The notes below the pieces were generated by a model. That model searched no databases, was not told the DNA's origin, and worked only from the letters and a program-made list of their open reading frames with translations. A program made the translations under genes and the position numbers. Positions 1 through 42,043 of a DNA stretch of 64,000 bases are shown here, in pieces (the first letter of the stretch is position 1; each line of letters opens with the position of its first letter). Origin of the DNA: Phycisphaerae bacterium (GTDB lineage: Bacteria; Planctomycetota; Phycisphaerae; UBA1845; Fen-1342); NCBI GenBank assembly GCA_030428945.1, contig JAUIEC010000001.1, forward strand, positions 156,438 to 220,437, written 5' to 3'.

Positions 1-63
1 CCAGCCCGGCCGACTGGCGCGACGGCGGCTACGCAGCGCTGCTCAAACGAAGAGCTGAGAGTC

Positions 64-129
64 AGTGAGCGAGTAAGCAAGTGAGCAAGTAAGCAAGTGA
101 GCAAGTGAGCAAGTAAGCAAGTGAGCAAG
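64..129 (+). repeat. GCAAGTRA heptamer tract (family A); sense orientation suggests an upstream + strand gene ends just before the window start
   Basis: Direct reading: gagtaagcaagtgagcaagtaagcaagtgagcaagtgagcaagtaagcaagtgagcaag. Confidence 0.8.
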
Positions 130-131
130 GG

Positions 132-216
132 TCGTAGGGTGCGTCATCGACGCATCAGCCCGCGCCCTCTTGTGAGCGGACGCTCAGGCGTCGATGCCGC
201 ACCGCCTGGCGCTTCC
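132..216 (-). repeat. Conserved ~80-bp intergenic core element (family D), inverted relative to the copy at 5158-5236
   Basis: Reverse complement of gtcgtagggtgcgtcatcgacgcatcagcccgcgccctcttgtgagcggacgctcaggcgtcgatgccgcaccgc aligns to 5158-5236 (gcggtgcggcatcgacgcc...gatgcgtcgctgacgcaccctacgg) with a few substitutions. It contains the internal palindrome TGCGTCATCGACGCA. Confidence 0.75.
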
Positions 217-278
217 TGCCGCAGCGAACACGGAACGCGGTGCGAAGTAAGCAAGTAAACAGGGCGTTGGGGTCATAC

Positions 279-304
279 TTCCCTGTTCCCTGTTCCCTTC
301 CCCA
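279..304 (-). repeat. GGGAACA heptamer tract (family B), sense-oriented at the 3' end of the minus-strand gene 307-906
   Basis: ttccctgttccctgttcccttcccc abuts the stop codon (cta at 307-309 on plus = TAG on minus). Confidence 0.7.
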
Positions 305-306
305 CC

Positions 307-906
307 CTATCCGTCGGCTTCACGGTCGCGGAGTACTTCGTAGTCGATGCGGAAGCTGCCGTCGGGGTTCTGTTCGAAGGTGAAGATCAACTGGTCGTCG
401 CAGGTGTAGTCCGGGCCGAGGCGGACCACGAGCGGGTCGACGCTGCCGGAGTCCGGCTGGCCTTCGCCCGGCGAACCCTGGGGCGCGCTTGAGAAGCTCG
501 CGCCCAGCACGAAGGCCTCGTCGTCGAAGTTGGCGGCCGTGTTGCTGCTGGTGTCGACGATTCGGTCGAGCAGTTTCTGGGTGCCGATCGCGATGTCGCG
601 GAAGCACGAGAAGGTCAGCGGGGCCTGGCTGGTTCCGCCCTCGATCCGCAACTGCTGGAACGACACGTCGCCCGGCGGGTCGCGGTCCAGGTCATCGAAC
701 GCTCCGATCGTGAAGATCGCCCGGAACGGCGTGTTGTTGATCAGCCGGACCGTGACGTTCCGCTGGCTCTCTTCGGTCAGGTTCAGGATCAGCGCGCCCG
801 AACAGCCGGCCGCCAGCAGCGCCAGGCCGGCCGCCAGCCAGCCGATCCACGTTCCGCCCCGTCCGCGCACGATGCCCGTTCCGCCGCCTGCCATGGCCCG
901 TTCCAT
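307..906 (-). CDS. Secreted or lipoprotein hypothetical protein
   Basis: Hydrophobic N-terminus ...WIGWLAAGLALLAAGCSGA with a lipobox-like Cys. GC3-rich codon usage. The TGATG start overlaps the stop of the upstream gene. Confidence 0.6.
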   Translation of the reverse strand: MERAMAGGGTGIVRGRGGTWIGWLAAGLALLAAGCSGALILNLTEESQRNVTVRLINNTPFRAIFTIGAFDDLDRDPPGDVSFQQLRIEGGTSQAPLTFSCFRDIAIGTQKLLDRIVDTSSNTAANFDDEAFVLGASFSSAPQGSPGEGQPDSGSVDPLVVRLGPDYTCDDQLIFTFEQNPDGSFRIDYEVLRDREADG

Positions 907-3275
907 CAGCCACCCTCCGATCCGGCCTGGTTCTGCTGCCGCGTCTGCACCAGCAGTCTCTCGCAGATCCGCAACTGGTTCGCCAGGAAGTCCTTGGTCT
1001 TCTGCGAGTACTGGCTCTGGCGCAGCCGGTTCTGCTCGCGACGAATGAAGTTGGCCGCCTGTCCGTAGGCACCGGCGCCCGCCAGTTCGCCAACGATGTA
1101 TCGATACAGCACGCGCCCGGTGGTCATGTCACGCTGCACCGCCGAGACCCACTCGCTCATCGCCCGGGCCGGGTCCGGCGGATCCGAGAAGCGGTACAGG
1201 AACCCCAGCCCCATCTGGGCCGAGGCCGTGTTCGGACGCCATTCCTCCCCGCGATCGGCCCGCGCCCGGATCTCCTGGATCAGCGGGTCGTCGCGACGGA
1301 TCATCAGCACGCCCTTGGCGCCGGCCATCAGCGGAATCCAGTTCGAGTTGCGCTGAATCGCGGCTTCGAGGGCCCGCCCGTGCCCGTACCGCAGCATGAC
1401 CATGTTCGTCCTGGTCCGGTCAAGCTCGGCGTAGATCGCCTCCGGGGTCGTGCGGTTGCCCATCACGACCTTCGTGTAGCGCTGGTAGTGGTCCACGTCG
1501 TAGACCTGCTGCGCCCGACCGTCCATGTACACCCGCGACTGCGGCGCGAAGAACATCACCATCCCGGCCTGCGTCCACTCGGTCATCAGGTTGGCCGCGA
1601 TTTCGTTCTTCGCCAGGTAGTCCAGCAGTCCGTTCGGCGTGGCGTCGAACCGGGTCACCTTCTCGAGCAGGCCGACCTCGGCGTCTTCGGGATAGAACGA
1701 GTTGATCCGCTCGATCGCGCCGCGGGCCTCCATCCCGGCCGGGATCAGCATGATCAGGCAGGCCGCCGAAACGACGTAGGGCGCCCGGCGGGCGACCTCC
1801 GGAACCTGTCGCACGACCAGGATCACCCAGGCCGTCACGCCGGGGGCCGCGAACAGCAGGAACACCGGCGCGAACCGCCGCGCGAAGAACGTCAGGATCA
1901 GGCCGATCCCGATCGCGAGCACGTCGAACGCCGTCAGGCGCGGCCAGGCGCGACCCTCGGCCGGCGCTTCCGTCGCGGTCTGCCGCGGTGTTCCGAACAG
2001 GGCGTAGATCCGCACGGCGCCGACCACGATCAGCAGGGCGGTCGAGAAGATCATGATCATCTTGATGCGGTCAAACGGCGGGAAGGCCGCGACCGGGAAG
2101 TAGGGCGGGTTCCACTCGGAGACCGAGCGCCAGACCTCGCTCTCGCCGACCTCCTGGCCGTGCACGAAGTTCTCCCAGCCGAACGGTCCCAGCACCCAGG
2201 TCGCCAGGAAGGCCGCGACCAGTGCCGCGCAGACGCCCCCGACCTGCCAGAGCGCCACCGAGGGCTCGCGCCGCCGGTCGATCATGAACTGGTACAGCAG
2301 GGCGATGCTCAGCACGATCGAGGCCAGCACCACGATGGCCCGGGCCTGGCCGAGATAGGCGCTGCCGCCCATCGGCGGACCCATCGCGAACCACTTCTCG
2401 TTGAGCGTCTTTCCGCAGGCATACCAGCAGGCCACCAGCGTGATCAGCGCCAGCACCACGTTGATGCCCAGCAGGATCCCGTCCGGAAGGTGCCGCACGT
2501 ATCGCCGCCACAGGTGCACGATCGCCCAGTAGGTGATGAACAGCCCGAAGATCACGTAACCGAAGATGAAACTGCCGTGCGAGTTGCCCCACAGGAACAG
2601 CAGCACGAAGATGCCCACGAGCGGCCACCGCCGCCGGCAGGAGCCCGACGTGCCCTCCAGGGCGCAGATCAGCATCCACATCGCCGACATCGCGAAGAAC
2701 CCGGTCGTCGCCGGCCGGGCGCTGATGAAGTCGCGGCACCCGTAGGCCACCACGCTCGCGGCGACCAGTCCGCCCAGCAGCGAGCGGGTCCGGAACCAGA
2801 CGGCCGCCAGCGTGCAGAGGAAGATCGAGGCGCTCATCGCCCAGGTGCCCCAGATGACGGCATCGGGTCCGAAGTCGCGGTACAGCCAGTACTGGACCAG
2901 GTGCGTTCCCCAGTTCTGGTTCAGCCAGGGCTCACCCTGAAAGGTGTAGCTCATGGTGTCGGCGACGGGGAAGCCGTCGGTCGCTTCGAGGATCGCGCGA
3001 CCGCCGGCAAGTCCGATATAGGTGTCGGTGGACGAGTGCACCTCGGTGATTCCGTACACGGTGCAGGCCGCCAGCAGCAGCAGCGCCGGCGCCAGCAGCA
3101 CGGCCGAGAGCCACGCGGGCCGCTCGGACGGCGGGATCTCCAGCAGATTCCAGACGCCGCCGGGCGCCTCGGATCCGTCCTGGTTTGCTGTCCCCGCGTT
3201 CGACTCGTTGGCAGGCATCGTGATCTCAAATACGGGCTGGGCCGCGGGCCGGTTCGCACGCGGCGGGCCGCGCAT
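906..3275 (-). CDS. Large polytopic membrane protein, more than 12 predicted TM helices, with a C-terminal soluble domain; possibly a glycosyltransferase-39/DUF2723-like family (family uncertain)
   Basis: Multiple hydrophobic 20-aa segments in the N-terminal ~500 aa and a hydrophilic C-terminal ~280 aa. Coding-like codon bias. The true start may lie at an internal Met (MPANESN). Confidence 0.6.
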   Translation of the reverse strand: MRGPPRANRPAAQPVFEITMPANESNAGTANQDGSEAPGGVWNLLEIPPSERPAWLSAVLLAPALLLLAACTVYGITEVHSSTDTYIGLAGGRAILEATDGFPVADTMSYTFQGEPWLNQNWGTHLVQYWLYRDFGPDAVIWGTWAMSASIFLCTLAAVWFRTRSLLGGLVAASVVAYGCRDFISARPATTGFFAMSAMWMLICALEGTSGSCRRRWPLVGIFVLLFLWGNSHGSFIFGYVIFGLFITYWAIVHLWRRYVRHLPDGILLGINVVLALITLVACWYACGKTLNEKWFAMGPPMGGSAYLGQARAIVVLASIVLSIALLYQFMIDRRREPSVALWQVGGVCAALVAAFLATWVLGPFGWENFVHGQEVGESEVWRSVSEWNPPYFPVAAFPPFDRIKMIMIFSTALLIVVGAVRIYALFGTPRQTATEAPAEGRAWPRLTAFDVLAIGIGLILTFFARRFAPVFLLFAAPGVTAWVILVVRQVPEVARRAPYVVSAACLIMLIPAGMEARGAIERINSFYPEDAEVGLLEKVTRFDATPNGLLDYLAKNEIAANLMTEWTQAGMVMFFAPQSRVYMDGRAQQVYDVDHYQRYTKVVMGNRTTPEAIYAELDRTRTNMVMLRYGHGRALEAAIQRNSNWIPLMAGAKGVLMIRRDDPLIQEIRARADRGEEWRPNTASAQMGLGFLYRFSDPPDPARAMSEWVSAVQRDMTTGRVLYRYIVGELAGAGAYGQAANFIRREQNRLRQSQYSQKTKDFLANQLRICERLLVQTRQQNQAGSEGG

Positions 3276-3475
3276 CGTACAGAAACTCCCACGGCATCGC
3301 GAGCGGGCACCTTGACGGTCTATCGGTGCCTCAAATAATACGCTGGAGGGAGGTTGCGCCGGGTCGGCCCGGAAACGCTAACATGCTGTCGCCGGCCGGA
3401 TTGTGGACCGGGCAGCCGGGTCTGCCGATAAACCGGGCAGGCCGTCCTCCCGCCCGATGATGAAAAGGACAACGC

Positions 3476-5008
3476 ATGCGGATCTCGAACGCGACCCTGC
3501 TTCCGATAATCCTCGGCGGACTGCTGACCCTCTCGGGGGCGACCTGCTTCCCGATCATCGAGTTCGGTGACGACGGGCTGACCGAGCCGACGCCGCCAGA
3601 GCCGCTGACGGTCTCGGTCCGCTTCCCGTCGGCCAGCCGCGAAGTTCCCCAGGGCACGGTCGTCAACATCGACTGGACCCTGAGCAACAACACCGGCAGC
3701 GACGCGATTGCCTCGGTCATCCTGCGCGACCGGGGCGACCTGTCCAACACGATCCTGGTCGGCGGACAGCGGATCCTGGGCGGCGGGCCCCAGCGGGTCG
3801 ACTTCGACACGACCAACTTCGGTGGCCGGCGGTTCGACATCCTGATCCAGGTTCTGGCGGGCAGCGATTTCGTCGAAGAGACGGCCGAGGGGCAGATCAC
3901 GGTCAACGGTCTGCCGGCGTTCGAGTTCACCGAGCCGTTCGAGCCGGTGGTTCTGGGCGCGGACCAGCCGGAGCAGGATCCGAATTCCGACGAGCCGCCG
4001 CCGGATCCGACGGTGACGATCCGCTGGATCGGGTCGGATGCCGAGGGCGACGGAACGGTGACGATCTTCGGCGACACCGATCTCGATCACGAGAGCGGCA
4101 ACGAGTTCGAAATCACGAGCGGGAGCCTGTCGGCCGACGCCGTCTTCGATCAGTTCGAATGGGACGGCGTCCCGGCGGACGGTCCGGTCGAGGAAGAGAC
4201 GGTCTTCAACCTGTACGCGGAGATTTCGGACGGGGTCAACGAGGACTTCATCGTCGAGGGCCTGGCGACGATCACGGTTCCGCTGCCCGAGGAGGAGGAA
4301 GAGGAGGAGGTCTTCGCGCTCGAGATCACCGATCCGAACATGGACACGGACTTCCTGACGAGCGAGGCGATGTTCACGATCGGCTACACCATCGACGATC
4401 CGAACGTGCTGATCGACCTGGGCGTGGACCTGGACGACAACCACACCAACGGCAACGAGACGCTGATCCTCTTCCAGGAGTTCATCGAGAAGGGCGCCAA
4501 CGAGAACTCGTTCGACTGGGACGGGACCGACAAGGACGGCAACGTCGTCCCGAACGGCATCTACCGCACCTACCTGGTCGTCAACCGCGGCTCCGGCACG
4601 CCGCAGATCGTCGATGCCGAGGGCCTGCTGTTCCGGCGAGCCAACGAGAACGATCCGCTGATCGCGCTGCTGGATCCCGGCGTCGACAACACCAAGGACA
4701 TCGGCGAGTCGATCACCTTCCGCTGGCGCGACGAGGACCCCGACGAGACGGCCGTGATCCGCCTGACGCTCGACGATGATCCGGATCCGGACGAAGCGGT
4801 CGAGACCGACGAGGCCGAGATCGAGATCCTGCCCGAGCGCGACGCGGCCGGCGACGGTGTCCGCGACACGTTCGCGTACTCGGTGCCCAACACGCTGGCG
4901 CCCGGGACGTACTACATCTTCGCGTACATCGACGCGGACGGGGCAGCGCCCTTCGACCACGTCAGCGTCGCGCCCGGCCGCCTGATCGTCGAGGACCCGG
5001 ACGGGTAG
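3476..5008 (+). CDS. Secreted acidic (D/E-rich) repeat-containing hypothetical protein
   Basis: Signal peptide MRISNATLLPIILGGLLTLSGATC. Strong GC3 bias. The antisense ORF 3320-4960 is an Arg/Val-rich artefact. Confidence 0.7.
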   Translation: MRISNATLLPIILGGLLTLSGATCFPIIEFGDDGLTEPTPPEPLTVSVRFPSASREVPQGTVVNIDWTLSNNTGSDAIASVILRDRGDLSNTILVGGQRILGGGPQRVDFDTTNFGGRRFDILIQVLAGSDFVEETAEGQITVNGLPAFEFTEPFEPVVLGADQPEQDPNSDEPPPDPTVTIRWIGSDAEGDGTVTIFGDTDLDHESGNEFEITSGSLSADAVFDQFEWDGVPADGPVEEETVFNLYAEISDGVNEDFIVEGLATITVPLPEEEEEEEVFALEITDPNMDTDFLTSEAMFTIGYTIDDPNVLIDLGVDLDDNHTNGNETLILFQEFIEKGANENSFDWDGTDKDGNVVPNGIYRTYLVVNRGSGTPQIVDAEGLLFRRANENDPLIALLDPGVDNTKDIGESITFRWRDEDPDETAVIRLTLDDDPDPDEAVETDEAEIEILPERDAAGDGVRDTFAYSVPNTLAPGTYYIFAYIDADGAAPFDHVSVAPGRLIVEDPDG

Positions 5009-5021
5009 CTTGGGGAAGGGA

Positions 5022-5056
5022 ACCGGGAACAGGGAACAGGGAACAGGGAACAGGGG
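5022..5056 (+). repeat. GGGAACA heptamer tract (family B) directly after the stop of gene 3476-5008
   Basis: ggggaagggaaccgggaacagggaacagggaacagggaacaggg. Confidence 0.8.
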
Positions 5057-5350
5057 GTGCCGCGTGGTGGGCAGACCCTGCTGGCCTGCTGCACTGTTCT
5101 GGCTTGCTTACCTGCTCACTTCGCACCGCGTCCCGTGTTCGCTACGGCGGGGATCGCCAAGCGGTGCGGCATCGACGCCTGCGCTTCCGCTCACAAGAAG
5201 GCGCGGGCAGATGCGTCGCTGACGCACCCTACGGCACTGGGGGAAGGGAACCGGGAACCGGGCACCGGGAACAGGGAACAGGGGGTGCCGCTTGGTTGGC
5301 AGACCCTGCTGGCCTGCTGCACTGTTCTGGCTTGCTTACCTGCTCACTTG
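5054..5350 (+). repeat. Composite intergenic repeat block: two ~68-bp direct repeats (5054-5121, 5284-5350) flanking the family-D core (5158-5236) and a second GGGAACA tract (5240-5283)
   Basis: ggtgccgc(g/t)tggt(g/t)ggcagaccctgctggcctgctgcactgttctggcttgcttacctgctcactt occurs twice. The core matches 132-216 (inverted) and 49694-49770. Confidence 0.75.
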
Positions 5351-5400
5351 CTTACTTGCTTACTTGCTTACTTGCTTACTCGCTCACTTAGTGACAGTTT
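5338..5400 (-). repeat. GCAAGTRA heptamer tract (family A) in sense orientation directly at the stop of minus-strand gene 5388-7160
   Basis: The plus-strand text cttgcttacttgcttacttgcttactcgctcacttag contains the gene stop (TAA on the minus strand). The tract follows it in the gene sense. Confidence 0.8.
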
Positions 5401-7160
5401 CGGCCGAAGTTGCGGAGCACGACGGCCAGGTCGCTGAGGGTGACCGCCTGGTCGCCGGTGACATCGCCGGCCTGGGTGGCGGTTCGGCCGAAGTTGGTCA
5501 GGACCGTCTCGAGGTCGGCCAGGTCGATCGTCGCGCTGCCGTCCGTGTCGCCCGCGCAGGTCTCGGCCAGGAGCAGGCGCTGGTTGACCGGCACGTCGTG
5601 CAGTTCGCTGACCGTTCCGGACGCCGGCCAGGTGACCCAGACGCGGTGCAGCACGCTGACCGGGCGATCGAAGCCGAAGTGGGCGAGCGTCTCGTTCTGT
5701 GACATGAAGTTGCTGGCCGCCCGCAGTTCGCGCATCTGGACGGGGCTTTCGGGGGTGGCCTGCACGCGGACGACGGCGCCGATGCCTTCACGGCTGGTGA
5801 GCGTGCCGCGGAGGGTCACCTGCAGCCAGGCCCGCTGGCTGCCGCCGTCGTTGCGGTACAGCATCGGCGTGTCGGCGTTGTTGGCGATGAACAGGTCCAG
5901 GTCGCCGTCGCGGTCGTAGTCGAAGACGACCAGTCCCTTGCCCGAGCGGGTGTCGGTCAGCCCGACCGAGGTCGAGACCTCGGGCATCAGGCCCGGGCCG
6001 TCGTTGCGCCAGAGCTTCATCGGATCGTGGTTGAAGCGGTCCTCGTTGGTCAGGAACGGGAAGTCGACGCCGTTGGTCATCACCAGGTCGAGGTCGCCGT
6101 CGTTGTCGTAGTCGAGGAACGAAGCGCCCCAGCCCCAGCCGCCATCGCGCACGCCGCGGGCGTCGGTCTGATCGCTGAACAGCGAGTCGCCCTCGTTCTG
6201 GTAGAAGCGGTTGCCGCTTCCGTCCCAGTCGCCGAACGGTGCGTTCGGGTCGAAGATCGCGGTGACGAACCAGTCGAGGTCGCCGTCGTTGTCGTAGTCG
6301 CCGATCGCCGAGCCCATCCCGTTCTCGTCGGTCCCGACCCGGGCCGCTTCGGTCACATCCTCGAAGCTCCCGTTGCGGCGGTTGCGGTAGTAGCGGCTCG
6401 TGACGAAGTCGCCGGCGTGAACCAGGTCGGCCCAGCCGTCGCCGTCCATGTCGCTGAACGCGCCCGACCAGCCCTCGACCTCGTCCCGGAAACTGACGCC
6501 CTGCCGCGGAATCCGCTCGAAGACGCGGGCCGCTTCGGTCACGTCGACGAACGCGCCCCCCTCGTTGTGATACAGCGCGTTGGCCGGGTTGTCGGCCGAC
6601 CAGGTCCAGACCACCAGGTCCAGCCTGCCGTCCAGGTCGTAGTCGCCGAAGGCCGCGCTGCTCGGGCCGCGCTCGACGCCGCCGGTCATCGCCACGCCCC
6701 AGGCGGCCGCCTCCTCGCGAAACGTGCCGTCGCCGTTGTTCAGGTAGAGGAAGTTCTGCCCGTTGCGGTTGATCGTCAGCAGGTACAGGTCGACCCAGCC
6801 GTCGTTGTTGACGTCGCCCCAGATGCAGCCCGAACTGCGGCCGCTGAAGTCGACGCCGGCCGTCGCGGCCACATCCGCGAAGGTTCCGTCGCCCAGGTTG
6901 CGGTACAGCAGGTTCGGCTGGCGGACGCGGGTGACGTACAGGTCGACCCAGCCGTCGTTGTCGAAGTCGGCCGCGGCGGCGCCGCCGACCATGTAGGCGA
7001 GACTGGCGTTCGGGCCGGCGAGCGGGATTCCGTCCCAGTGGCTGGCCGAGACGCCGGCGGTGGTCGTTACGTCGGTGAAGGTCACGACCGGGTCGTCAGC
7101 GCGGGCGATGCCGCTCAACCCACAGAGGGCGATCACCACCCGCCATTGCGGCTTCCACAT
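5388..7160 (-). CDS. FG-GAP repeat / ASPIC-UnbV (CRTAC1-like) secreted protein with C-terminal dockerin-type repeats
   Basis: Repeated DxDGDGxxDL and FxNxGDGTF motifs. The C-terminus GDTDGSATIDLADLETVL...GDVTGDQAVTLSDLAVVLRNFG is dockerin type I-like. Signal peptide after the internal Met (MWKPQWRVVIALCGLSGIARA). The ORF track begins at a TTG upstream. Confidence 0.8.
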   Translation of the reverse strand: MWKPQWRVVIALCGLSGIARADDPVVTFTDVTTTAGVSASHWDGIPLAGPNASLAYMVGGAAAADFDNDGWVDLYVTRVRQPNLLYRNLGDGTFADVAATAGVDFSGRSSGCIWGDVNNDGWVDLYLLTINRNGQNFLYLNNGDGTFREEAAAWGVAMTGGVERGPSSAAFGDYDLDGRLDLVVWTWSADNPANALYHNEGGAFVDVTEAARVFERIPRQGVSFRDEVEGWSGAFSDMDGDGWADLVHAGDFVTSRYYRNRRNGSFEDVTEAARVGTDENGMGSAIGDYDNDGDLDWFVTAIFDPNAPFGDWDGSGNRFYQNEGDSLFSDQTDARGVRDGGWGWGASFLDYDNDGDLDLVMTNGVDFPFLTNEDRFNHDPMKLWRNDGPGLMPEVSTSVGLTDTRSGKGLVVFDYDRDGDLDLFIANNADTPMLYRNDGGSQRAWLQVTLRGTLTSREGIGAVVRVQATPESPVQMRELRAASNFMSQNETLAHFGFDRPVSVLHRVWVTWPASGTVSELHDVPVNQRLLLAETCAGDTDGSATIDLADLETVLTNFGRTATQAGDVTGDQAVTLSDLAVVLRNFGRNCH

Positions 7161-7381
7161 CACGATTGCACTCCCGCAGCGCGGTCCGAACGGACCCGAC
7201 AGAATTTCGCGCTGTCTACCAGCCGTCGCCCGAAGCGGCAACGAAGTGATTCAAACTCGCATTGTATCGCGCAGCCCGCACGACACAGAAGACACTGCTC
7301 AGCAGCTCAAGAGCAGTACCGCCGGAGCGCGAGCGACAGCAGGCTTGCTCCCTCGCTCCCTGGCTCCCTCGCTCCCTCTCC

Positions 7382-9142
7382 TCAGTGACACGCCCGGCCG
7401 AAGTTGCGCAGCAGGAGTGCCAGGTCGCTCAGTCCGACCAGGCCGTCGGCGTCGAAGTCGCCTTCGCCGGGGCCGGCGGCCGGTCCGCCGAAGCGCACCA
7501 GCAGTTGCTCGAGGTCGTCGAGCGCGATCGACAGGTCGCCGTTCGTGTCGCCGGCGCAGGGCTCGGTCACGAGGATCCGCTGGTTCAGCGGCACGTCGGT
7601 CAGGCGCTGCGTCAGTCCGCTGGCCGGCCAGGTCACCCGGACCTCGGCGACGCTCGTCACTTCGCGGTCGAAGCCGAAGTGCGCGATCGGTTCGTTCTGC
7701 GACAGGAAGTTGTTGCCGCCGGTCATCTCGTGCATCTGGACCGGGCTGTCGGCCGTGGCCTGCACGCGGATCCGGGCGCCGAGTCCGGCCGAGTTGGTCA
7801 GCGTGCCGCGCAGGGCGACCTGGAGCCAGTCGCGCTGATTGCCGCCGTCGTTGCGGTACAGAACCGGCATCTCGAGGTTGTTGGCGATGACGATGTCCTG
7901 GTCGCCGTCGCGGTCGTAGTCCAGCACCGCCAGGCCCTTGCCGCTGCGATCGTCGTCAAAGCCGAGGGCCGCGCCGGTCTCGTTCATCAGGCCGCCGCCG
8001 ATGTTCTCCCACAGTCGCACCGGGGTGATGTTGAACAGGTTCTCGATGAACGTGTACGGGTAATTCACCCCGTTGGTCATCGCCAGGTCGAGGTCGCCGT
8101 CGTTGTCGTAGTCGAGGAACGAAGCGCCCCAGCCCCAGTCGCCGTCCCGGGTGGTCGTCACATCGGTGTAGTCCGAGAACAGCGAATCGCCCTCGTTGCG
8201 ATAGAAGCGGTTCCCCGTGGTCCCCCACAGGCCGACCTGGTCGTCCCAGATCGACGTGACGAACCAGTCCAGGTCGCCGTCGTGGTCGTAGTCGCCGAGG
8301 GCCGAGCCCATTCCGTTCTCGTCGGTGCCAAGCTGACCCGCCACCGTCCGGTCACTGAAGGTTCCGTCACGCTCATTGCGGTAGTAGCGGCTCGTCAGGA
8401 AATCGCCGGCCGTCACCAGGTCGACCCAGCCGTCGTTGTCCATGTCCGCGAAACTGCCGGACCAGCCGAACACTTCGCGGCCGCCGATCCGTCCGAACAC
8501 GTTGGCCGCCTCGGTCACCTCGGTGAAGTGTCCGCTGCCGTCGTTCTGGAACAGGGCGTTACCGGGGTCCGTGAAGGACCACTCCCAGACCACCAGGTCC
8601 AGGTCGCCATCCAGGTCGTAGTCGCCGAAGGCCGAACTCGAGTAGTAGCGGTCCTCGCCGCCCGCCATCGCCACGCCCCGGGCGGCCGCGTCCTCGGTGA
8701 AGGTTCCGTCGCCGTTGTTGATGTACAGCAGGTTGACCCCGTTGCGGCGGAAGACGGTCACGTACAGGTCCGGCCAGCCGTCGTTGTTGACGTCGCCCCA
8801 CATGCCGCCGGCGCTGCGTCCGCTGAAGTCGACGCCGGCCGTCGCGGCGACATCCTCGAAGGTCCCGTCGCCGAGGTTCCGCCACAGGCTGTTGGGGGTC
8901 AGCAGGCGGGTGACGTACAGGTCGGTCCAGCCGTCCTGGTCGAAGTCGCCGGCCGAGACGCCCGCGACCATGTACCAGTAGTCGACTTCGCCGGGCTGGT
9001 TCGGCAGCACGCCGTCCCAGTGCATGACCTCGATGCCGGCGGCGGCGGTCACATCGGTGAAGCCGACCGGTGTGGGATCCAGCGCCAGGCCCGGAACGGC
9101 CGGCGCGAGCAGCGCAATCGAACTCAGAACGATCCGCCTCAT
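7382..9142 (-). CDS. FG-GAP repeat / ASPIC-UnbV (CRTAC1-like) secreted protein with a C-terminal dockerin-like domain (tandem paralog)
   Basis: Co-linear similarity to 5388-7160 (GVDFSGRS..GDVNNDGW.DLY, UnbV-like RVTWPASG). Signal peptide MRRIVLSSIALLAPAVPGLA. Followed by a GGGAGCGA tract at 7344-7381. Confidence 0.8.
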   Translation of the reverse strand: MRRIVLSSIALLAPAVPGLALDPTPVGFTDVTAAAGIEVMHWDGVLPNQPGEVDYWYMVAGVSAGDFDQDGWTDLYVTRLLTPNSLWRNLGDGTFEDVAATAGVDFSGRSAGGMWGDVNNDGWPDLYVTVFRRNGVNLLYINNGDGTFTEDAAARGVAMAGGEDRYYSSSAFGDYDLDGDLDLVVWEWSFTDPGNALFQNDGSGHFTEVTEAANVFGRIGGREVFGWSGSFADMDNDGWVDLVTAGDFLTSRYYRNERDGTFSDRTVAGQLGTDENGMGSALGDYDHDGDLDWFVTSIWDDQVGLWGTTGNRFYRNEGDSLFSDYTDVTTTRDGDWGWGASFLDYDNDGDLDLAMTNGVNYPYTFIENLFNITPVRLWENIGGGLMNETGAALGFDDDRSGKGLAVLDYDRDGDQDIVIANNLEMPVLYRNDGGNQRDWLQVALRGTLTNSAGLGARIRVQATADSPVQMHEMTGGNNFLSQNEPIAHFGFDREVTSVAEVRVTWPASGLTQRLTDVPLNQRILVTEPCAGDTNGDLSIALDDLEQLLVRFGGPAAGPGEGDFDADGLVGLSDLALLLRNFGRACH

Positions 9143-12544: not shown

Positions 12545-12990
12545 TACCGGCGGGACGCCAGTGTCTTCGCGGACCTTTAGATTCTGGATTTGTGGCACAG
12601 GCGTCTCGCCTGTGTCTTCCGGATAGGGTGCCCAATCACCGGCGGGACGCCGGTGCCACACAAGACAAGGCCGGTGCCACACAAGACACGGTGGCTCAGC
12701 GGAAGTTCAAGCTTGTGGCACTCCAAGCTTGTGCCATCCAAGCTGTGTGGCTGTGTGGCTGTGTGGCACAGGCGTCTCGCCTGTGTCTTCGCAGACCTTT
12801 AGATTTCTGGGTTTGTGGCACAGGCGTCCCGCCTGTGTCTTCCGGATAGGGTGCTCAATCACCGGCGGGACGCCGGTGCCACACAGGTCAAGGCCGGTGC
12901 CACACAAGGCCGGTTCCACAAGGGGGTCGGTGCTCAATCACCGGCGGGACGCCGGTGCCACACAAGACACGGCCGGTGCCACAGAAGGGT
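12545..12990. repeat. Two copies of a ~120-200-bp palindromic repeat (family E)
   Basis: Units gacctttagatt(t)ctgg(g/a)tttgtggcacaggcgtc(t/c)cgcctgtgtcttccggatagggtgc(c/t)caatcaccggcgggacgccggtgccacaca(a/g)g(a/t)caaggccggtgccacaca at ~12575-12690 and ~12790-12985. Internal perfect palindrome caccggcgggacgccggtg and near-palindrome ggcacaggcgNNcgcctgtg(t)c. Confidence 0.8.
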
Positions 12991-23701: not shown

Positions 23702-26056
23702 GTGACGCCGATTGTCGGCGGGAGGATGCCAATGCCGTCAGCGAGTCGCCCCGCCAACCAGGCCGACTTCACCTTCGAGATCGATCAGCCGGACACGCCC
23801 GCGCTGCGGGTGACCGGCTTCCGCGGCCAGGCCGCGCTGAGCACGCTGTTCCACGTGCAGGTCGACCTGGCGTCGGATGAACCGGCGCTCGACAAGGCCG
23901 CGCTGCTCGGGCAGGCCTGCCGGCTGACGCTCCGGTCGCCGCGCGGCGATCGGTTCATCTCGGGCATCGTCCGCGCGCTGGCCCGCACCGGGCAGGGGTC
24001 GCGGGTGACGCACTACGCGGCCGAGATCGTGCCGGTGCACTGGTACCTGACCCGCCGGCAGCAGTCGCGGATTCTGCAGAGTCACCTCTGCACGGACATG
24101 AGTGTCCCGGGCGTGATCCAGCACGTGCTGGAAAAGGCCGGCATTCCGGACACGCACTTCCGCTTCGCGTTGCAGGGCACCTATCCGCAGCGTGAGTGCG
24201 TCGTGCAGTACCGCGAGACGGACATGAACTTCATCGCGCGGCTGATGGAGATCGAAGGCCTGCACTTCTTCTTCGAGCACGAGGCGGACCGGCATGTGCT
24301 GGTGATCGCCGACGGCGACGTCGCGCACGTGCCGGGCGAGGGGATCGAGGAGATCGCCTTTCGCGCGCCGACCGGCCTGGTGCCGGCCGAGACCTGCGCG
24401 TTCGAACTGGAGGATCGGCGGGCGATCGAGGTCGACGCGGTTTCGCTGGACGATTTCGACTTCAAGAATCCGGCCCAGCAGTTGCGGGCCCGGCTGGAAG
24501 GTCCGGACGCGCCGGCCCTCGAGACGGTCGACTATCCCGGCTGCTACGTGACCCGCGGCGATGGCGAGCGCTACGCCCGCGTGCGACTGGAGGCCGAGCA
24601 GGTCGGGCGGCACGTCGTCCGCCTGCGGGCCAATGTCCGCGGGCTGCGCCCGGGCTCGACCTTTCACCTGGTCGATCATCCGGCCGCCGAGTGCAACCGC
24701 GAGTACCTGGTGATCGCGGCCGAGGAGCAGGCCGCCCAGCCACAGAGCGTGACGAACGAGGCGGGCGCGGCCGAGGCCCCGCAGTACCGGGTGCTGCTGA
24801 CGCTGATTCCGGTGGAGGTGCCGTACCGGGCGCCGCTGGACACGCCGGTCCCGCGGGTGGCGGGCAGCCAGACGGCGCTGGTGGTCGGTCCGCCGGGCGA
24901 GGAGATCTGGCCGGACGAGTACGGACGGGTCAAGGTGCAGTTCCACTGGGACCAGGCCGGGACGTACAACGAGGAGAGTTCGGCCTGGATCCGGGTCAGC
25001 CAGGGGTGGGCCGGCGGGCGTTACGGGATGTTCTTCCTGCCGCGGGTCGGGCAGGAGGTGGTGGTCGATTTCCTGGAGGCGAACCCGGATCGGCCGCTGA
25101 TCACGGGCAGCGTCTACAACAAGGACAACATGCCGCCGGTGCAGTTGCCGGAGGACAAGACCTGCAGCACGATCAAGTCGCGCAGCACGGTCGGCGGGGG
25201 CGGGGCGAACGAACTGCGGTTCGACGATCGCAAGGACGAGGAACTGCTGTTCCTGCACGCCCAGAAGAACCTTCACCTGCGGGCGCTGAACGACGCGATC
25301 GAGACGATCGGGGCGAACCGGCACTCGCACGTGTCGGGCGACGTGATCAGCGAGGTCTCGAAGAACGTCTCGACCGCGATCGAACTGGATCGCTGCGAGC
25401 AGATCGGCGGGAACGCCTCGCTGTCGATCACGGGTGACCAGATCGAGGTGGTGTCCGGCAATCAATCGGTCGATGTCGGCGGCGGGCAGACCTTGACCTG
25501 CGGCGGCACGGTCGTGGTCGAATCGAGCACGGGCATCACGCTGAAGGTCGGCGGCAACTTCCTGACGATCGACCCGAGCGGGATCTACCTGATGGGTACG
25601 GTCGTGCACGTCAACGGCGCCGGCGCGGCTCTGAACGGCACGTCGCTCGAAGCGCTCGAGACCGGCGAGGCGGCCGTGGCGGCCACGACCGAGCCGGGCA
25701 CGGACGTCACCTACCAGGCCGATCCGGATACGCCGGGACAGATCGAGGCGACGCTGCAGCAGGTCGCCGACGCGGACGAGGACCAGGCCGAAGACGAGGC
25801 GAGCTGGGTCGAGATCGAACTGGTGGACCAGAACGGGCTGCCGGTGGCCGGCGAGGCCTGGGAACTGATTTCGCCGAGCGGGAAGACCTACAGCGGCAGC
25901 CTGGACGCCAACGGCCGGTCGCACGTGGCCGTCGATCAGCCGGGGACCTGCCAGGTCAGCTTCCCGCGACTCGACCGGCGGGCCTGGTCGCGGACAGGCG
26001 GAGAGCAGGCGGCCGCGACGGCCGCGGGTGGCGCGACGCAGGAGGGCTCGGCATGA
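23702..26056 (+). CDS. vgrG: Type VI secretion system spike protein VgrG
   Basis: gp5 OB-fold hallmark RVGQEVVVDFLEANPDRPLITGSVYN. gp27-like N-terminal domain and a beta-helical repeat region (GNASLSITGDQIEVVSGNQSVDVGGGQ...). About 90-aa C-terminal extension after an acidic linker. The start may be M9 or M11 (23726 or 23732). Confidence 0.9.
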   Translation: MTPIVGGRMPMPSASRPANQADFTFEIDQPDTPALRVTGFRGQAALSTLFHVQVDLASDEPALDKAALLGQACRLTLRSPRGDRFISGIVRALARTGQGSRVTHYAAEIVPVHWYLTRRQQSRILQSHLCTDMSVPGVIQHVLEKAGIPDTHFRFALQGTYPQRECVVQYRETDMNFIARLMEIEGLHFFFEHEADRHVLVIADGDVAHVPGEGIEEIAFRAPTGLVPAETCAFELEDRRAIEVDAVSLDDFDFKNPAQQLRARLEGPDAPALETVDYPGCYVTRGDGERYARVRLEAEQVGRHVVRLRANVRGLRPGSTFHLVDHPAAECNREYLVIAAEEQAAQPQSVTNEAGAAEAPQYRVLLTLIPVEVPYRAPLDTPVPRVAGSQTALVVGPPGEEIWPDEYGRVKVQFHWDQAGTYNEESSAWIRVSQGWAGGRYGMFFLPRVGQEVVVDFLEANPDRPLITGSVYNKDNMPPVQLPEDKTCSTIKSRSTVGGGGANELRFDDRKDEELLFLHAQKNLHLRALNDAIETIGANRHSHVSGDVISEVSKNVSTAIELDRCEQIGGNASLSITGDQIEVVSGNQSVDVGGGQTLTCGGTVVVESSTGITLKVGGNFLTIDPSGIYLMGTVVHVNGAGAALNGTSLEALETGEAAVAATTEPGTDVTYQADPDTPGQIEATLQQVADADEDQAEDEASWVEIELVDQNGLPVAGEAWELISPSGKTYSGSLDANGRSHVAVDQPGTCQVSFPRLDRRAWSRTGGEQAAATAAGGATQEGSA

Positions 26057-26955
26057 GCAACCCGACCGACGATTCGTTTTCCGTGCGACTGAGCCAGGCG
26101 GCGGGGGGCGGGCAGGCGCCGGCCGATCCGCGGGAGGAGATTGGCGAACTGCCGAACCGCAGGTCGACGGAGCCGGCTGCGCAGCCGCAGGAGGCCGCGT
26201 TCAATCCGCTGGACTCGTTCGCGGCCCGGCTGGAGTCGCACCTGGACCAGGCGGCGCCGCAGCAGCAGGAACCGGCGGCGCCGCGCGTCGCGCCGGACGC
26301 GGTGATCCGGGCCGAGGCGTGCGGGGCCGGTGCGCACGAGGTGGCCCGCGGCGCGTGCCTGGCGGGGATCGCGCGGCAGGTCGGGCACGACTGGGAGACG
26401 ATCTGGAACGACCCGGCCAACGCGCCGGTGCGCGAGGCGCGTCAGGACCCGAACCTGCTGCTGGCGGGTGACCGGCTGCACATTCCGCCGCAGGAGGCCA
26501 AGCAGGAGTCGGTGGCGACGGAGGCCCGGCATCGGTTCGTGCTGCACAGCGCGCCGGTGCGGCTGGTGCTGCAGTTGAAGGACGAGGCCGGCAAGCCGCG
26601 GGCGAACCTGGCGTACACGCTGGAGGTCGACGGTGCGGCGCGGGAGGGCTTCACCGATCCGAGCGGGACGCTGCGCGAGTTCGTGCCGGCCGAAGCCCGC
26701 GAGGCGCTGCTGACGCTGACGGAATCGGGCGAGGCCTATCCGTTGCGGCTGGGGGCCCTGCAGACGGCCGAGGCGTGTGGCGGCGTGCAGGCGCGGCTGA
26801 ACAACCTGGGTTTCCACTGTGGTCCGCCGAGCGGGCAGTGGGACGAGCGGACGCGGCTGGCGCTGAAGGCATTCCAGGGTCGCGAGGGCCTGCCGGCGCA
26901 CGGAGAACTGGACGAGGCGACGCTGCAGCGCCTGCGGGCGACGCACAGGAGTTAG
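26053..26955 (+). CDS. LysM-like plus peptidoglycan-binding (PGBD_1-like) domain protein, no signal peptide
   Basis: LysM-like HEVARGACLAGIARQVGHDWETIWNDPAN...LLLAGDRLHIP. PG-binding-like GVQARLNNLGFHCGPPSGQWDERTRLALKAFQGREGLPAHGELDEATLQRL. ATGA overlap with the vgrG stop. Confidence 0.7.
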   Translation: MSNPTDDSFSVRLSQAAGGGQAPADPREEIGELPNRRSTEPAAQPQEAAFNPLDSFAARLESHLDQAAPQQQEPAAPRVAPDAVIRAEACGAGAHEVARGACLAGIARQVGHDWETIWNDPANAPVREARQDPNLLLAGDRLHIPPQEAKQESVATEARHRFVLHSAPVRLVLQLKDEAGKPRANLAYTLEVDGAAREGFTDPSGTLREFVPAEAREALLTLTESGEAYPLRLGALQTAEACGGVQARLNNLGFHCGPPSGQWDERTRLALKAFQGREGLPAHGELDEATLQRLRATHRS

Positions 26956-27014
26956 TGAGCAGGTAAGCGGGTAGGCAGGTGTGCTGCGGGGCCTTTTCGG
27001 GCGTTGGATTGGAG

Positions 27015-28028
27015 ATGGCGGTGTCAACGACGACTTCGAGTGATGCGATCTTTGCGGACTGGATGCAGAAGGCGCTGACGTTTCCGGATCCGGGGCATGG
27101 TCACCGGCACAAGCCGATCAACATCTCGTGCTGGATCGCGCTGCATGCCGAGCAACTGGTGGTGACGGTGCACACGGTCTGTTACTCGCAGTATTTCAAC
27201 GACACGCATCGCCAGGGCTGGACCAGCGGGATCAAGTCGTGCTGGGACGGCGAGTTCCTGATCGAGGCCGACGCGACGCCGGGCGGCGGGCACGATGTGC
27301 CGCTGTCGGTGCCGGGCACCGAGACGCCGGCCGTGCTGCGGCCGCAGACCTGGCAGGTTCCGATCGTGTTCGATCCGCGGTTCTACAAGAGCGGCGATCC
27401 GAATGCGCCGGCCAACGCCGACTGTTCGCCGCCGATTCATCGGATCGTCGACCCGGCCGTCGAGCGCGGTGACACGAACAACTGGTGGGGCAAGGACAGG
27501 AATCCGCAGGACACGATGGGGCACATGGCCGCCCACGAGTTCGGGCATTACATCGGCTGCGGGGACGAGTACGGGCTGCACGAGGCGGCCTTCCAGAGCG
27601 TGGTCGGTCGGGCGCCGCGTCCGGACGAGCGGATGGTCGGCAAGGACGGCGTCCCGAACGGGCTGTACAGCACGCACGACAGCATCATGGGGTTGTACAC
27701 GGATCAGTTTCCGAAGCGGCGGCACGCCGAGATGATCGTGGACTGGCTGAACGAGACATACGTGCCGCGGCAGAGCCTGGTCGAGCGCTTCATCCTGCGG
27801 ACCTATGACGAACTGGGCGGGGATCCGATCGGGGAGAACGACTGGTCGTGGTACACGGTCCAGGAGGGCGAGTGGCTGTCGCACATCGCCGAGCGGCACG
27901 GCTACACCTGGGATCAGCTCTACAACTACGACCCGGTCGGCGGCGAGCCGAACCGCATGCTGCTGAGCAGCGGCGACCCGAACCTGATCTATCCCGGCGA
28001 ACAGATTCGCGTTCCGAACGGAGGCTGA
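27015..28028 (+). CDS. HExxH zinc metallopeptidase-like protein with a C-terminal LysM domain (candidate T6SS effector)
   Basis: HEFGHYIGCGDEYG (HExxH plus a downstream acidic GDEY). C-terminal LysM YTVQEGEWLSHIAERHGYTWDQLYNYD...GDPNLIYPGEQIRVP. No signal peptide. GGAG located before the ATG at 27015. Confidence 0.7.
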   Translation: MAVSTTTSSDAIFADWMQKALTFPDPGHGHRHKPINISCWIALHAEQLVVTVHTVCYSQYFNDTHRQGWTSGIKSCWDGEFLIEADATPGGGHDVPLSVPGTETPAVLRPQTWQVPIVFDPRFYKSGDPNAPANADCSPPIHRIVDPAVERGDTNNWWGKDRNPQDTMGHMAAHEFGHYIGCGDEYGLHEAAFQSVVGRAPRPDERMVGKDGVPNGLYSTHDSIMGLYTDQFPKRRHAEMIVDWLNETYVPRQSLVERFILRTYDELGGDPIGENDWSWYTVQEGEWLSHIAERHGYTWDQLYNYDPVGGEPNRMLLSSGDPNLIYPGEQIRVPNGG

Positions 28029-28030
28029 AC

Positions 28031-28858
28031 GTGCCGGCTGCCGCCCGCGTACTGGACACGACTTCGCACGGTACACCGCTGATGCCCGGACCCGGCAGCA
28101 GTGACGTGCTGATCGGCATGCTGCCGGCCTGGCGGGCGCTGCCGGCGGGAGTCGGCGCGGGGCTCGAATCGGCCTCGTCGCAGATGCAGTCGCTGATGTC
28201 GTCGCCGAGCCTGACGCCCGTGGATGCGACCGCCACGCTGGTGCAGGTGCAGACCGGGCTGGCGCAGTCGGCGGCGGCGGCCACCGCGGACGGAAACATG
28301 TCGGCCCTGCCGAGCACGGCCTCGGCGATGGTCAGCCTGAACGCGACCAACGCGGCGCTGACGGCCACCTACCTGGCGGCCGCGGCGGTGCCGGGCGGCG
28401 CGGCGGCCGCGGGCGTGGCGTATGCGCAGGGTCTGCAGGCGGCGGCCGCGGCAACCGTCGGGGCGGCGTTCCAGGCGATCGCGGGGACGACCGACCTGCA
28501 CAACTGTCCGATTCCCTGTCCGATCCCGCCGCACGGACCGGGGGTGGTGACGCAGGCGAGCACGAGCGTGTTCGTCAACAACCTGCCGGCCGTGCGGCAG
28601 GCGGACAACGTGGTCGAGGCCTGCGGCGGTTCGAACGCGATCGCGATGGGGGCGCCGACCGTGTTCATCGGGGACCAGGGCGGCAGCAGTTCGCCGGCGG
28701 GGCAGAGCGGGTCCTCGGTGACGGGGGCGGTGGCGAGTTTCGTGGCGACGGTCGCGGACGTGATCGCGGCGGCGACGGTGATCATGCAGAACGAGGCGGC
28801 GGCGACGAGCGGTGCGGCGTTGTGCGAGGTCTGCGACGATTCGGGGGCGGGCACATGA
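28031..28858 (+). CDS. PAAR-domain protein with an Ala/Ser-rich insertion
   Basis: GTG start gives MPAAARVLDTTSHGTPLMPGPGSSDVLIGMLPAWRA (PAAR motif 1). The C-terminal HNCPIPCPIPPHG...NLPAVRQADNVVEACGGSNAIAMGAPTVFIG is PAAR motif 2. GGAGG RBS located 5 nt upstream inside the preceding gene. Confidence 0.8.
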   Translation: MPAAARVLDTTSHGTPLMPGPGSSDVLIGMLPAWRALPAGVGAGLESASSQMQSLMSSPSLTPVDATATLVQVQTGLAQSAAAATADGNMSALPSTASAMVSLNATNAALTATYLAAAAVPGGAAAAGVAYAQGLQAAAAATVGAAFQAIAGTTDLHNCPIPCPIPPHGPGVVTQASTSVFVNNLPAVRQADNVVEACGGSNAIAMGAPTVFIGDQGGSSSPAGQSGSSVTGAVASFVATVADVIAAATVIMQNEAAATSGAALCEVCDDSGAGT

Positions 28859-29241
28859 AGCCGGTGTTCACGCTGCGCGACGCGCACCTGGAGGCGTTTG
28901 CCGCGGCGGCGCGGGAGAGCTTCGAGGATCGCATGCTGGCGCACGTCCGCCTGGCGTTTCGCGCGCGGCATGACGAACTGGGCGCGGTCGAGTCCCGCCG
29001 CTGGGTCCGCAGCGGGATCGAGCGGGCGGCCGACTACGGGATCACGGTCGAACGGGACGTCAGTCGCTTCATCCGGCTGATGTTTCAACTGGGTGAGAAC
29101 TTCGACCGCGGGCAGGCCCGGGCGATGCTGGCGCGGCGCGACGTGCCGGCCGCGCTGCGGTTGAACCGGGTGCTGACGATGGCGGTCAGTTCGGGGGCCC
29201 TGCCGGCCGGGACGGTGCGGGCGGTGGAGGCGGAGTCGTGA
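28855..29241 (+). CDS. Hypothetical 128-aa cytoplasmic protein in the vgrG operon
   Basis: ACATGA stop/start overlap with the PAAR gene. Coding-like bias. No signal peptide or recognisable motif. Confidence 0.55.
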   Translation: MKPVFTLRDAHLEAFAAAARESFEDRMLAHVRLAFRARHDELGAVESRRWVRSGIERAADYGITVERDVSRFIRLMFQLGENFDRGQARAMLARRDVPAALRLNRVLTMAVSSGALPAGTVRAVEAES

Positions 29242-30425: not shown

Positions 30426-30955
30426 TTGCCGAGCGCGTGCTCGAGCCGCTGCAGCGGGGGCTGCGGGCCGGTGACCAGGCGGGGCTGCACTGGTACGCGG
30501 TGGTCGACGCCGCGCAGCCGCTGGATGCGATCCGGCGGGTGCGGGTGGCGCGGCGCAAGAACCGGACGCTGTACCAGGGACGGCTCGGGGCCCTGGCACA
30601 CGCGGCGGCGCCGTACCTGGTGGAACTGGACCTGCAGGACAACCTGACGGCCTGGCTGCTGGCGCACGGGAGCCAGCACTGGGGGATCCTGCTGCAGTCA
30701 TCGGCCGACTTCGAGACGGTTCGACAGCACCTGCGGCGGTTCCTGGTGGTCAGCGATCCGGAGGGTCGTCGGCAGCGGTTCCGGTTCTACGATCCGCGGA
30801 TCCTGCGTGCGTTCCTGCCGGTCTGCACGGGCGAAGAGGCGGCCAGGTTCTTCGGTCCGGTCAAGCGGTACTACGCGGTGGGGCGCGACCTGCTCGACTG
30901 GGAGCGCTTCTCGGCCGTCTCGCGCGGCGTGCATCGGGAGCAGGTAAGCAGGTAA
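30401..30955 (+). CDS. DUF4123-like protein (T6SS effector adaptor Tap/Tec family)
   Basis: LHWYAVVDAAQPLDAIRRV...RTLYQGRLGALAHAAAPYLVELD matches the DUF4123 LYALxDGA...L(Y/F)xG...APxLV pattern. An alternative GTG start at 30422 overlaps the upstream stop. The last codons and the TAA stop are supplied by the heptamer tract. Confidence 0.55.
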   Translation: MSTGGCLVIAERVLEPLQRGLRAGDQAGLHWYAVVDAAQPLDAIRRVRVARRKNRTLYQGRLGALAHAAAPYLVELDLQDNLTAWLLAHGSQHWGILLQSSADFETVRQHLRRFLVVSDPEGRRQRFRFYDPRILRAFLPVCTGEEAARFFGPVKRYYAVGRDLLDWERFSAVSRGVHREQVSR

Positions 30956-30996
30956 GCAGGTGAGCACGTAAGCACGTAGGCAAGCAGCAAGTGACC
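30939..30996 (+). repeat. GCAAGTRA-type heptamer tract (family A) overlapping the end of the DUF4123 gene
   Basis: gagcaggtaagcaggtaagcaggtgagcacgtaagcacgtaggcaagcagcaagtga. Confidence 0.8.
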
Positions 30997-35563: not shown

Positions 35564-35827
35564 GCATTTCTTCTTCTACGGAATTCAGGCTGGGATGGGT
35601 TGGCGCGCTGTGCACCGAACGTGAGCCATCAGGGGCCTGGTTGCTCCCATGGCGTTGTCCAGAGGATGCAGGGCGAAAGAGTACCAGAGTGGTAAATGGT
35701 TGTCAATAAGGGAGCAAGGGAGCGAGGGAGCGAGGGAGCCAGAGTGAGTGGCGACGGAGCGCGCGGGATCTGGTGCCACTGCTCTTGAGCTCTTGAGCAG
35801 TGTCCTCTCCGCGCGGTGGGCCCGGGC

Positions 35828-42041: not shown

Positions 42042-42043
42042 GC

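Follow-up and report, generated by a model that had tools for sequence, protein, structure and literature searches.

Three short palindromic repeats lie in intergenic regions of the window (the whole stretch of DNA analyzed here, 64 kb in length), each close to tandem tracts built of 7-8-nt units. The question that they raise is whether repeat and tracts are parts of one mobile element, or whether features of separate origin share the same gaps between genes. The first-pass annotation took the former view, describing a composite REP/MITE-like element with an ~80-bp core conserved in three copies. We find the three sites where it placed them (132-216, 5158-5236, and 49694-49770). When the window was scanned with a strict doublet pattern (GGTGCGGCATCGACGC-N20-50-GCGTCGNTGACGCACC), matches were obtained at 138-203(-), 5163-5228(+), and 49695-49762(+), vs. 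none in 100 dinucleotide shuffles. The 16-mer that makes up an arm of the doublet occurs six times with zero or one mismatch, and all remaining matches have three mismatches, which is the noise level.

The extent of the conserved core was overstated, given that all three copies have in common only two inverted arms of ~20 nt. Copies 1 and 2 share more than 80 bp, i.e., the doublet plus a 45-nt extension: blastn finds 126 nt in common at 89.7% identity (5108-5233 vs. 258-133), and an inverted repeat search gives 134 nt at 88% (128-261 and 5105-5238). Copy 3 is related to these two by its arms only (24 nt at 95.8% and 21-22 nt at 95%-100%, blastn); the similarity of its 36-nt spacer and both of its flanks to those of copies 1 and 2 is at the level of shuffled sequence (p 0.16-0.63). 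The two arms differ in kind. The right arm (the "T-arm") is intact and reads, from the outside, GTAG-GGTGCGTC-ATC-GACGCATC; its stem comprises 8 bp, one of them a G.T pair, and its loop 3 nt. The left arm (the "G-arm", GCGGTGCGGCATCGACGCC) is a degenerate inverted partner, in which NGC replaces TAG and the stem carries a T>G change. An internal palindrome reported for the core, TGCGTC-ATC-GACGCA, is real but is present in one arm only. The spacers between the arms measure 34, 34, and 36 nt in copies 1, 2, and 3, respectively. The features of the three copies are as follows.

134-156, forward strand: intact GTAG REP of copy 1 (GTAG 134-137, GGTGCGTC 138-145, loop ATC, GACGCATC 149-156); alone as DNA, -5.9 kcal/mol, z -3.84
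185-205, reverse strand: G-arm of copy 1, GCGGTGCGGCATCGACGCCTG, lacking GTAG and forming a poor hairpin of its own; four mismatches to the REP consensus
133-258, reverse strand: stretch of copy 1 homologous to copy 2 (doublet, 34-nt spacer, 45-nt extension)
5161-5181, forward strand: G-arm of copy 2, GCGGTGCGGCATCGACGCCTG; alone, -2.5 kcal/mol, z +0.66
5210-5232, reverse strand: intact GTAG REP of copy 2, GTAGGGTGCGTCAGCGACGCATC; -5.9 kcal/mol, z -3.44
5108-5233, forward strand: stretch of copy 2 homologous to copy 1 (by blastn, inverted repeat search, and alignment)
49693-49713, forward strand: G-arm of copy 3, GCGGTGCGGCATCGACGCCCG
49744-49766, reverse strand: intact GTAG REP of copy 3, GTAGGGTGCGTCATCGACGCGGC; -6.2 kcal/mol, z -2.97
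49751-49842, forward strand: 46-nt tandem duplication at copy 3 (two units, 91%), comprising the outer half of the GTAG arm and 28 nt of flank

The extension of copies 1 and 2 begins with CGCACCGC and looks like a third, truncated REP. In copy 2 this REP-like fragment lies at 5122-5129 and is complementary to the start of the G-arm; in copy 1 it lies at 237-244 (GCGGTGCG). A partial duplication noted earlier at 49798-49842 does exist as a repeat, but it is really the second unit of the 46-nt tandem duplication of copy 3 (49751-49842, 2.0 copies), and contains half a REP (CGATGATGCACCCTACGG, 49797-49814).

GTAG stands immediately 5' of the stem at 134-137(+), 5229-5232(-), and 49763-49766(-), where the partner arms have NGC. 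The three right arms are the only matches in the window to the REP-class consensus with its GTAG tag, and that of copy 1 has no mismatch to the 16-mer and one to the consensus. Singly, the intact arms fold as DNA with energies of -5.9 to -6.2 kcal/mol (z -3.0 to -3.8). GTAG-type REPs are imperfect stem-loop palindromes of 20-40 nt with GTAG (or GTGG) 0-2 nt 5' of the stem; the right arm shows both properties and the left arm neither. Pairing between the arms consists of 6 + 9 bp around a G.A mismatch, identical in all three copies, and pairing within the spacer lengthens the stem even where the spacer sequence differs. The AGC loop variant of copy 2 breaks one pair of this long hairpin. RNA folding, one of the checks proposed with the first description, shows every doublet as one long hairpin, and does so on either strand (-40.9 to -52.8 kcal/mol), with z-scores (-1.4 to -2.7) that are modest because the background is 68% G+C. 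Thus, inverted REPs and spacer form one hairpin in all three copies, as in a REPIN, one arm being a decayed REP; the arms (95%-100% identical) are better conserved than the spacer, and the doublet appears to be the copied unit.

It is likely, in our view, that each core is a heterodimeric GTAG-REP doublet of REPIN/BIME architecture, made up of an intact REP and a decayed inverted partner with GTAG facing outward; its origin and mobility, we infer, would be owed to a RAYT. In the published model, a RAYT binds the hairpin and GTAG in single-stranded DNA and cleaves there (PMC6006769), and the replicative unit is a REP doublet with a less-conserved spacer rather than a single REP (PMC3116915). 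By analogy, a RAYT (REP-associated tyrosine transposase, HUH/Y1) encoded elsewhere in the genome would recognize the hairpin foot plus GTAG, and would have copied the doublet as a unit, as single-stranded DNA. In the 3' UTRs of the flanking convergent genes, the transcribed hairpin would plausibly play a passive part, as a 3'-end stabilizer or a transcription roadblock. Only one arm retains GTAG and a hairpin of its own, and the copies may therefore be poorly mobile or immobile now.

Much of this architecture has precedents. GTAG REP families form head-head dimers and occur in Planctomycetes, mostly downstream of genes; heterodimers are found among REP dimers generally, whose spacers span 20-100 bp (Di Nocera, De Gregorio and Rocco 2013, PMC3733652). 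The present doublets resemble the head-head heterodimers of that study in having GTAG immediately before a stem of 8 bp and a loop of 3 nt, GTAG on the outside of the dimer, a sequence-variable spacer within the 20-100-bp range, and stems that differ between partners. The location downstream from coding regions, the clusters and trimers, and the occurrence in Planctomycetes also agree. Unlike those families, one partner here lacks GTAG and a palindrome of its own in every copy. The R. baltica GTAG-20/21 peptides given in the supplement of the same paper are not matched by this REP, and GTAGGGTGCGTC...GACGCACC had no match in the literature searched. REPINs (Bertels and Rainey 2011, PMC3116915) likewise consist of inverted arms and a spacer that form one hairpin, with arms far better conserved than the spacer, occur in tandem clusters, and have the doublet as the apparent copied unit. 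However, REPINs are served by one cognate RAYT gene, are numerous in their genomes, and undergo excision, whereas the present family is known from at least six doublets (see below); its arms are strongly asymmetric, and its spacers are wholly different in sequence between copies, with length held at 34-36 nt.

Further members of the family were sought with a protein query, the six-frame translation of the window doublets. It matched one predicted protein, P0005 (211 aa, NCBI), which is located on another contig (201,226 nt). This ORF is spurious, its frame running across three additional doublets and a GCTCCCTC-type tract. Its doublet peptides (RVRHRR...RRCRTAWQ, RVVGCVIDA...GVDAAPLGDP, and CHAVRHRRL...ASMTHPTTL) are each an exact translation of arm and flank words found in the window. 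The spacers deduced from P0005 measure 35, 35, and 36 nt, the spacer peptides being mutually different. A threefold VDPGDGWGCHA repeat in P0005 represents a tandem duplication of the left-arm start, similar to the 46-nt duplication at copy 3. Taking the three doublets of the window and the three read from P0005 together, the family therefore includes at least six doublets with the same asymmetric arm pair (three as DNA and three deduced from the protein). Across these six, the spacer keeps its length and not its sequence. The same decayed left arm is present in all of them, which points to descent from one doublet that was copied as a unit, rather than to independent pairings.

Outside this family, the exact doublet pattern had no match in JGI metagenomes or in the plasmid collection. 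The GTAG arm alone has matches in 39 metagenome contigs and three IMG/VR contigs. A scan of the genome collection with the degenerate arm RSGGTGCGKCATCGACGCM gave at least 89 matches, mostly chance singles in unrelated high-G+C genomes; the relevant ones among the matches listed are L024 and L057 only, two labeled MAGs (Isosphaeraceae, Planctomycetota) in which GTAGGGTGCGTCAYYGACGCACC occurs in pairs. In the metagenome contigs the class takes the form GTAG-GGTGCGTC-(3-5-nt loop)-GACGCACC, a clean GTAG REP, and it is nearly identical in sequence across L091-L129, L132-L134, L024, and L057, on contigs of 40%-68% G+C. Mostly it forms inverted dimers with GTAG outside and spacers of 6-57 nt. In low-G+C contigs the REP is a perfect 12-bp palindrome with GTAG/CTAC at both ends. 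Arrays also occur: in L108 four dimers follow one another in tandem with a period of 115 nt, three of the four having a compensated stem in the second arm (GGTGCATC/GATGCACC), and at least six REPs occur within 12.5 kb of L125. Among 46 distinct REPs, 96.5% of stem cells are paired; the sample was ascertained by a fixed 19-base pattern and is therefore biased, the partner arms being free of that bias. Compensatory stem changes were found at two positions: G-C>A-U, seen three times within a single locus, and U-A>C-G, seen in two. All 13 of the dimers examined are extragenic. Of the 12 with an ORF called next to them, 10 have a gene 3' end within ~140 nt (eight of these within ~40 nt).

Screens for a RAYT (HUH with YxxNP or YxxxQ motifs) found none in ~0.87 Mb of loci carrying the REP class, and the ORFs adjoining REPs in L057, L024, and L096 are not transposases. 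Neither a RAYT nor another Y1/HUH transposase was found in the 64-kb window, based on Pfam searches of 30 ORFs and the same motif screens.

The genes around the doublets are ordinary chromosomal genes, encoding FG-GAP/ASPIC proteins, an S41 peptidase, and products that match nothing in Pfam. Gene calls based on third-position G+C (GC3) yielded clean genes, and all three copies are intergenic. Copy 1 lies between the window edge (probably a forward-strand gene ending near 57-68) and the gene at 307-906(-), copy 2 between the stop codons of 3476-5008(+) and 5388-7241(-), and copy 3 between 48192-49631(+) and 49926-51317(-). Accordingly, all three occupy gaps between convergent genes. The nearest homologue of a flanking gene that could be retrieved is 64% identical and is located on a 1.5-kb contig that ends 47 nt past the stop codon; the next is 34% identical, without REPs or tracts. 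The ORFs of the window also include one that has an N-terminal methylation motif and a DUF1559 match, weak and sub-threshold, and one for a PEP-CTERM protein, which suggest a host of Planctomycetota type. A module resembling type VI secretion cargo occupies 23702-30955 and consists of VgrG (Phage_GPD, Gp5_C, Phage_base_V; 23702-26056), a peptidoglycan-binding protein (26053-26955), and a DUF4123 adaptor (30401-30955).

The tandem-repeat search bears out that heptamer or octamer tracts flank each copy. Three tract families with 7-8-nt units are present in the window (GTRAGCAA, GGGAACM, and GAGGGAGC), in 15 arrays of at least three units. The tracts, and the modules next to copy 2, are located as follows.

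64-129, 279-298, 5017-5055, 5246-5283, 5331-5389, 7347-7378: tracts
30939-30982, 35708-35739, 41388-41433, 42022-42043, 42104-42145, 42240-42316: tracts
49828-49911, 53979-54009, 54037-54077, 55455-55485, 61928-61978: tracts
64-129, forward strand: octamer tract by copy 1, eight units of GTRAGCAA, judged an independent feature
5331-5389, reverse strand: octamer tract by copy 2, seven units of GTRAGCAA, abutting the stop codon of 5388-7241(-), also judged independent
49828-49911, reverse strand: octamer tract by copy 3, GAGGGAGC family, 14 nt from the stop codon of 49926-51317(-), likewise judged independent
5009-5121, forward strand: 113-nt module (heptamer tract, unique sequence, start of octamer tract)
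5237-5349, forward strand: second copy of the 113-nt module (95%), running directly into the octamer tract without a REP element

Most arrays (13 of 15) begin -12 to +59 nt from a stop codon, their purine-rich strand being the sense strand of the gene concerned, and the stop codon often falls within the first tract units. Whatever the frame, the GTRAGCAA family offers TAA/TGA. The DUF4123 gene (30401-30955) has its stop codon inside an octamer tract, and a tRNA gene (62105-62178(+), Rfam 68.5 bits) is found 127 nt downstream from another. Two tandem paralogous FG-GAP/ASPIC-UnbV genes, 5388-7241(-) and 7382-9142(-), are 76%-82% identical at the DNA level, in register, over ~2 kb, and the gap between them contains tracts and a hairpin module (module Y).

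Could core and tracts be a single composite element that moves as a package, or could the core target the tracts for insertion? Tracts do occur near all three copies. Octamers are found on both sides of copy 1, the element shared by copies 1 and 2 starts directly after an octamer ending in ...(T/C)ACTT, and the P0005 cluster likewise ends in a C-type (octamer) tract. Copy 2 sits exactly between two direct 113-nt modules that are themselves made of tracts, generating a 228-nt unit (113 nt plus a 115-nt REP element) repeated 1.5 times. Within 5009-5349, the junction is seen side by side in a filled-looking form (...CTGCTCACTT|CGCACC...) and an empty-looking form (...CTGCTCACTT|GCTTACTT...), an arrangement that could reflect either duplication or insertion at a duplicated junction. 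Against all this, at least 10 arrays are located in intergenic regions without any core, and it is to the stop codon, not to the core, that 13 of the 15 are tied. The claim of a composite element is unsupported because the same tract families occur in many core-free intergenic regions. Moreover, tracts are present in five or six of the ~8 convergent intergenic regions of the window, and thus their co-occurrence with the core in three out of three cases is expected by chance. Tract types and their order differ at every copy, and the boundary of copy 3 lacks A-type octamers. In 0.87 Mb of other loci the REP class is present and the tracts are not; tracts are also missing from the contigs with the 64% and 34% identical orthologues, and a literature search for the tract sequences found no relevant paper.

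Two hairpin modules unrelated to the REPs are embedded in tracts as well, which also counts against a composite of core and tracts. One, GAATGCAGTCCCCCACCCTGCGCTCGCTGGCGCTCGCTAGAGGGTGGGGCACCCGGG, contains the inverted repeat CCCCACCCT/AGGGTGGGG and is present in ~2.5 copies (42044-42100, 42147-42203, and partially 42205-42236); octamer tracts lie on either side of it in the convergent gap 42041/42328, and it belongs to a 103-nt tandem duplication. The other, GACACTGCTCA..AGCTCAAGAGCAGTG (palindrome CACTGCTC/GAGCAGTG), accompanies a GAGGGAGC tract at 7287-7378 and 35708-35808, in two gaps between tandem genes and in opposite orientation relative to transcription. Overall, we think it unlikely that core and tracts form one mobile package; the idea that the doublet targets the tracts is kept alive, at low probability, by the ...ACTT boundary of copies 1 and 2 and the 113-nt repeats at copy 2.

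Local tandem duplications are common in these intergenic regions, with units of 228 nt (copy 2), 46 nt (copy 3), and 103 nt (42022-42204). Given these and the distribution of tracts and REPs, the intergenic regions are mosaics in which REP doublets and tracts co-reside. A dense repeat block of another kind, unrelated to REPs or tracts, occupies 12582-12987 in the gap before the gene at 12815; it includes a 104-nt direct repeat (95%) and 21-nt, 16-nt, and 8-nt tandem repeats (GCCGGTGCCACACAAGACAAG, CAAGCTTGTGGCATC, and GCTGTGTG). E. coli BIMEs (bacterial interspersed mosaic elements; cited in PMC6006769) also combine inverted REP pairs with other short motifs and undergo local tandem duplication. 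The gaps described here depart from BIMEs in that the companion motifs are stop-anchored 7-8-nt tracts and unrelated hairpin modules that occur independently of REPs, rather than fixed S/L/s/l/r linkers, and the spacers are not a fixed set. The tracts are arguably the more unusual feature of the window. A 4,125-nt Logan contig from the same organism (L001/L130), the one other assembly found for this locus, ends in a GAGGGAGC tract on one side and a GCTTACTT tract on the other. Short-read assemblies thus break at tracts, and the tracts are therefore probably abundant genome-wide. RNA antisense to a tract would be C/U-rich and G-poor (rut-like), and we put forward, as an idea only, that this could serve Rho termination of convergent read-through.

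A host function without mobility is the next explanation to be weighed, namely that each doublet is a bidirectional terminator or mRNA 3'-end hairpin maintained by selection. Every copy lies between convergent genes and is a stable hairpin on both strands, and REP dimers in other genomes abut gene 3' ends, all of which would suit such a role. However, no T/U run follows the stem of any of the three copies on either strand, as an intrinsic terminator would have, and a scan of 1-5600 found no terminator-like or promoter-like site at copies 1 and 2. Also, the GTAG tag is needless for termination, and arms that are identical between unrelated loci and between distant organisms speak for copying rather than for hairpins selected independently. 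We regard termination as an improbable origin; it is better viewed as a role that a REP might take on secondarily.

A bolder proposal, which we consider a long shot, is that the asymmetric doublet is not a decayed REPIN at all. With a RAYT-competent GTAG arm, a "blind" arm, and a fixed 34-36-nt spacer, it might be an active one-ended replicator or a host-domesticated hairpin, inserting preferentially into, or helping to generate, lineage-specific purine-rich 7-8-nt tracts after stop codons. If that were true, REPs and post-stop tracts would constitute a new kind of 3'-intergenic mosaic system in a planctomycete lineage.

The label "MITE-like" does not hold. If the arms were the terminal inverted repeats of a MITE, descended from a DDE-type insertion sequence, the element would be small (about 70-130 nt here), non-coding, intergenic, and presumed non-autonomous, as the doublets are, and their 16-bp inverted termini would fit. 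Yet the flanks of the three doublets contain no direct repeats that could be target-site duplications, the window has no IS with matching ends, the spacer of copies 1 and 2 is not conserved in copy 3, and the termini have the GTAG-plus-palindrome signature of REPs rather than that of transposon terminal inverted repeats, which makes a MITE very unlikely indeed.

It was proposed at the outset that a structured RNA gene or a coding fragment at the copies would count against a dispersed intergenic family; neither was found. Coding sequence was rejected, as all copies are outside high-GC3 genes, and the only Rfam hit at gathering score in the window is the tRNA at 62105-62178, with no match overlapping the copies even at E<=1. 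The palindromic arms are conserved, as they might be in a small structured RNA gene or in a protein-binding or recombination site (an operator or Xer-like site), and their start, GGTGCG, recalls the XerC half-site of dif. Nevertheless, the scan of 1-5600 found no promoter-like site next to copies 1 and 2, the spacer varies in sequence, the arms have an 8-3-8 geometry plus GTAG where a Xer site would have 11-6-11, and multiple copies occur per 64 kb and form clusters; an RNA gene or binding site of this sort can scarcely be credited. Integron attC and Xer/dif-like sites were rejected for misfit of geometry, and CRISPR for want of regular spacing.

What stands of the original description is that these are not simple sequence repeats; they form a dispersed, intergenic, hairpin-forming family such as is commonly classed as non-autonomous mobile DNA. 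Though real, the repeat is of smaller extent and more ordinary character than the first description suggested. The family belongs to the well-known REP/REPIN/BIME kind and is not a new class, and the understanding of REPs is unchanged by it. Recognizing the doublets as GTAG REPs accounts for the three intergenic repeats and for some assembly breaks. It also carries a warning for annotation, given that these intergenic mosaics mislead gene callers into predicting ORFs such as P0005. To our knowledge, REP/RAYT systems are barely charted in the Planctomycetota, and to this phylum the family adds a defined GTAG-REP class, GTAG-GGTGCGTC-N3-5-GACGCACC, together with a fixed heterodimer form.
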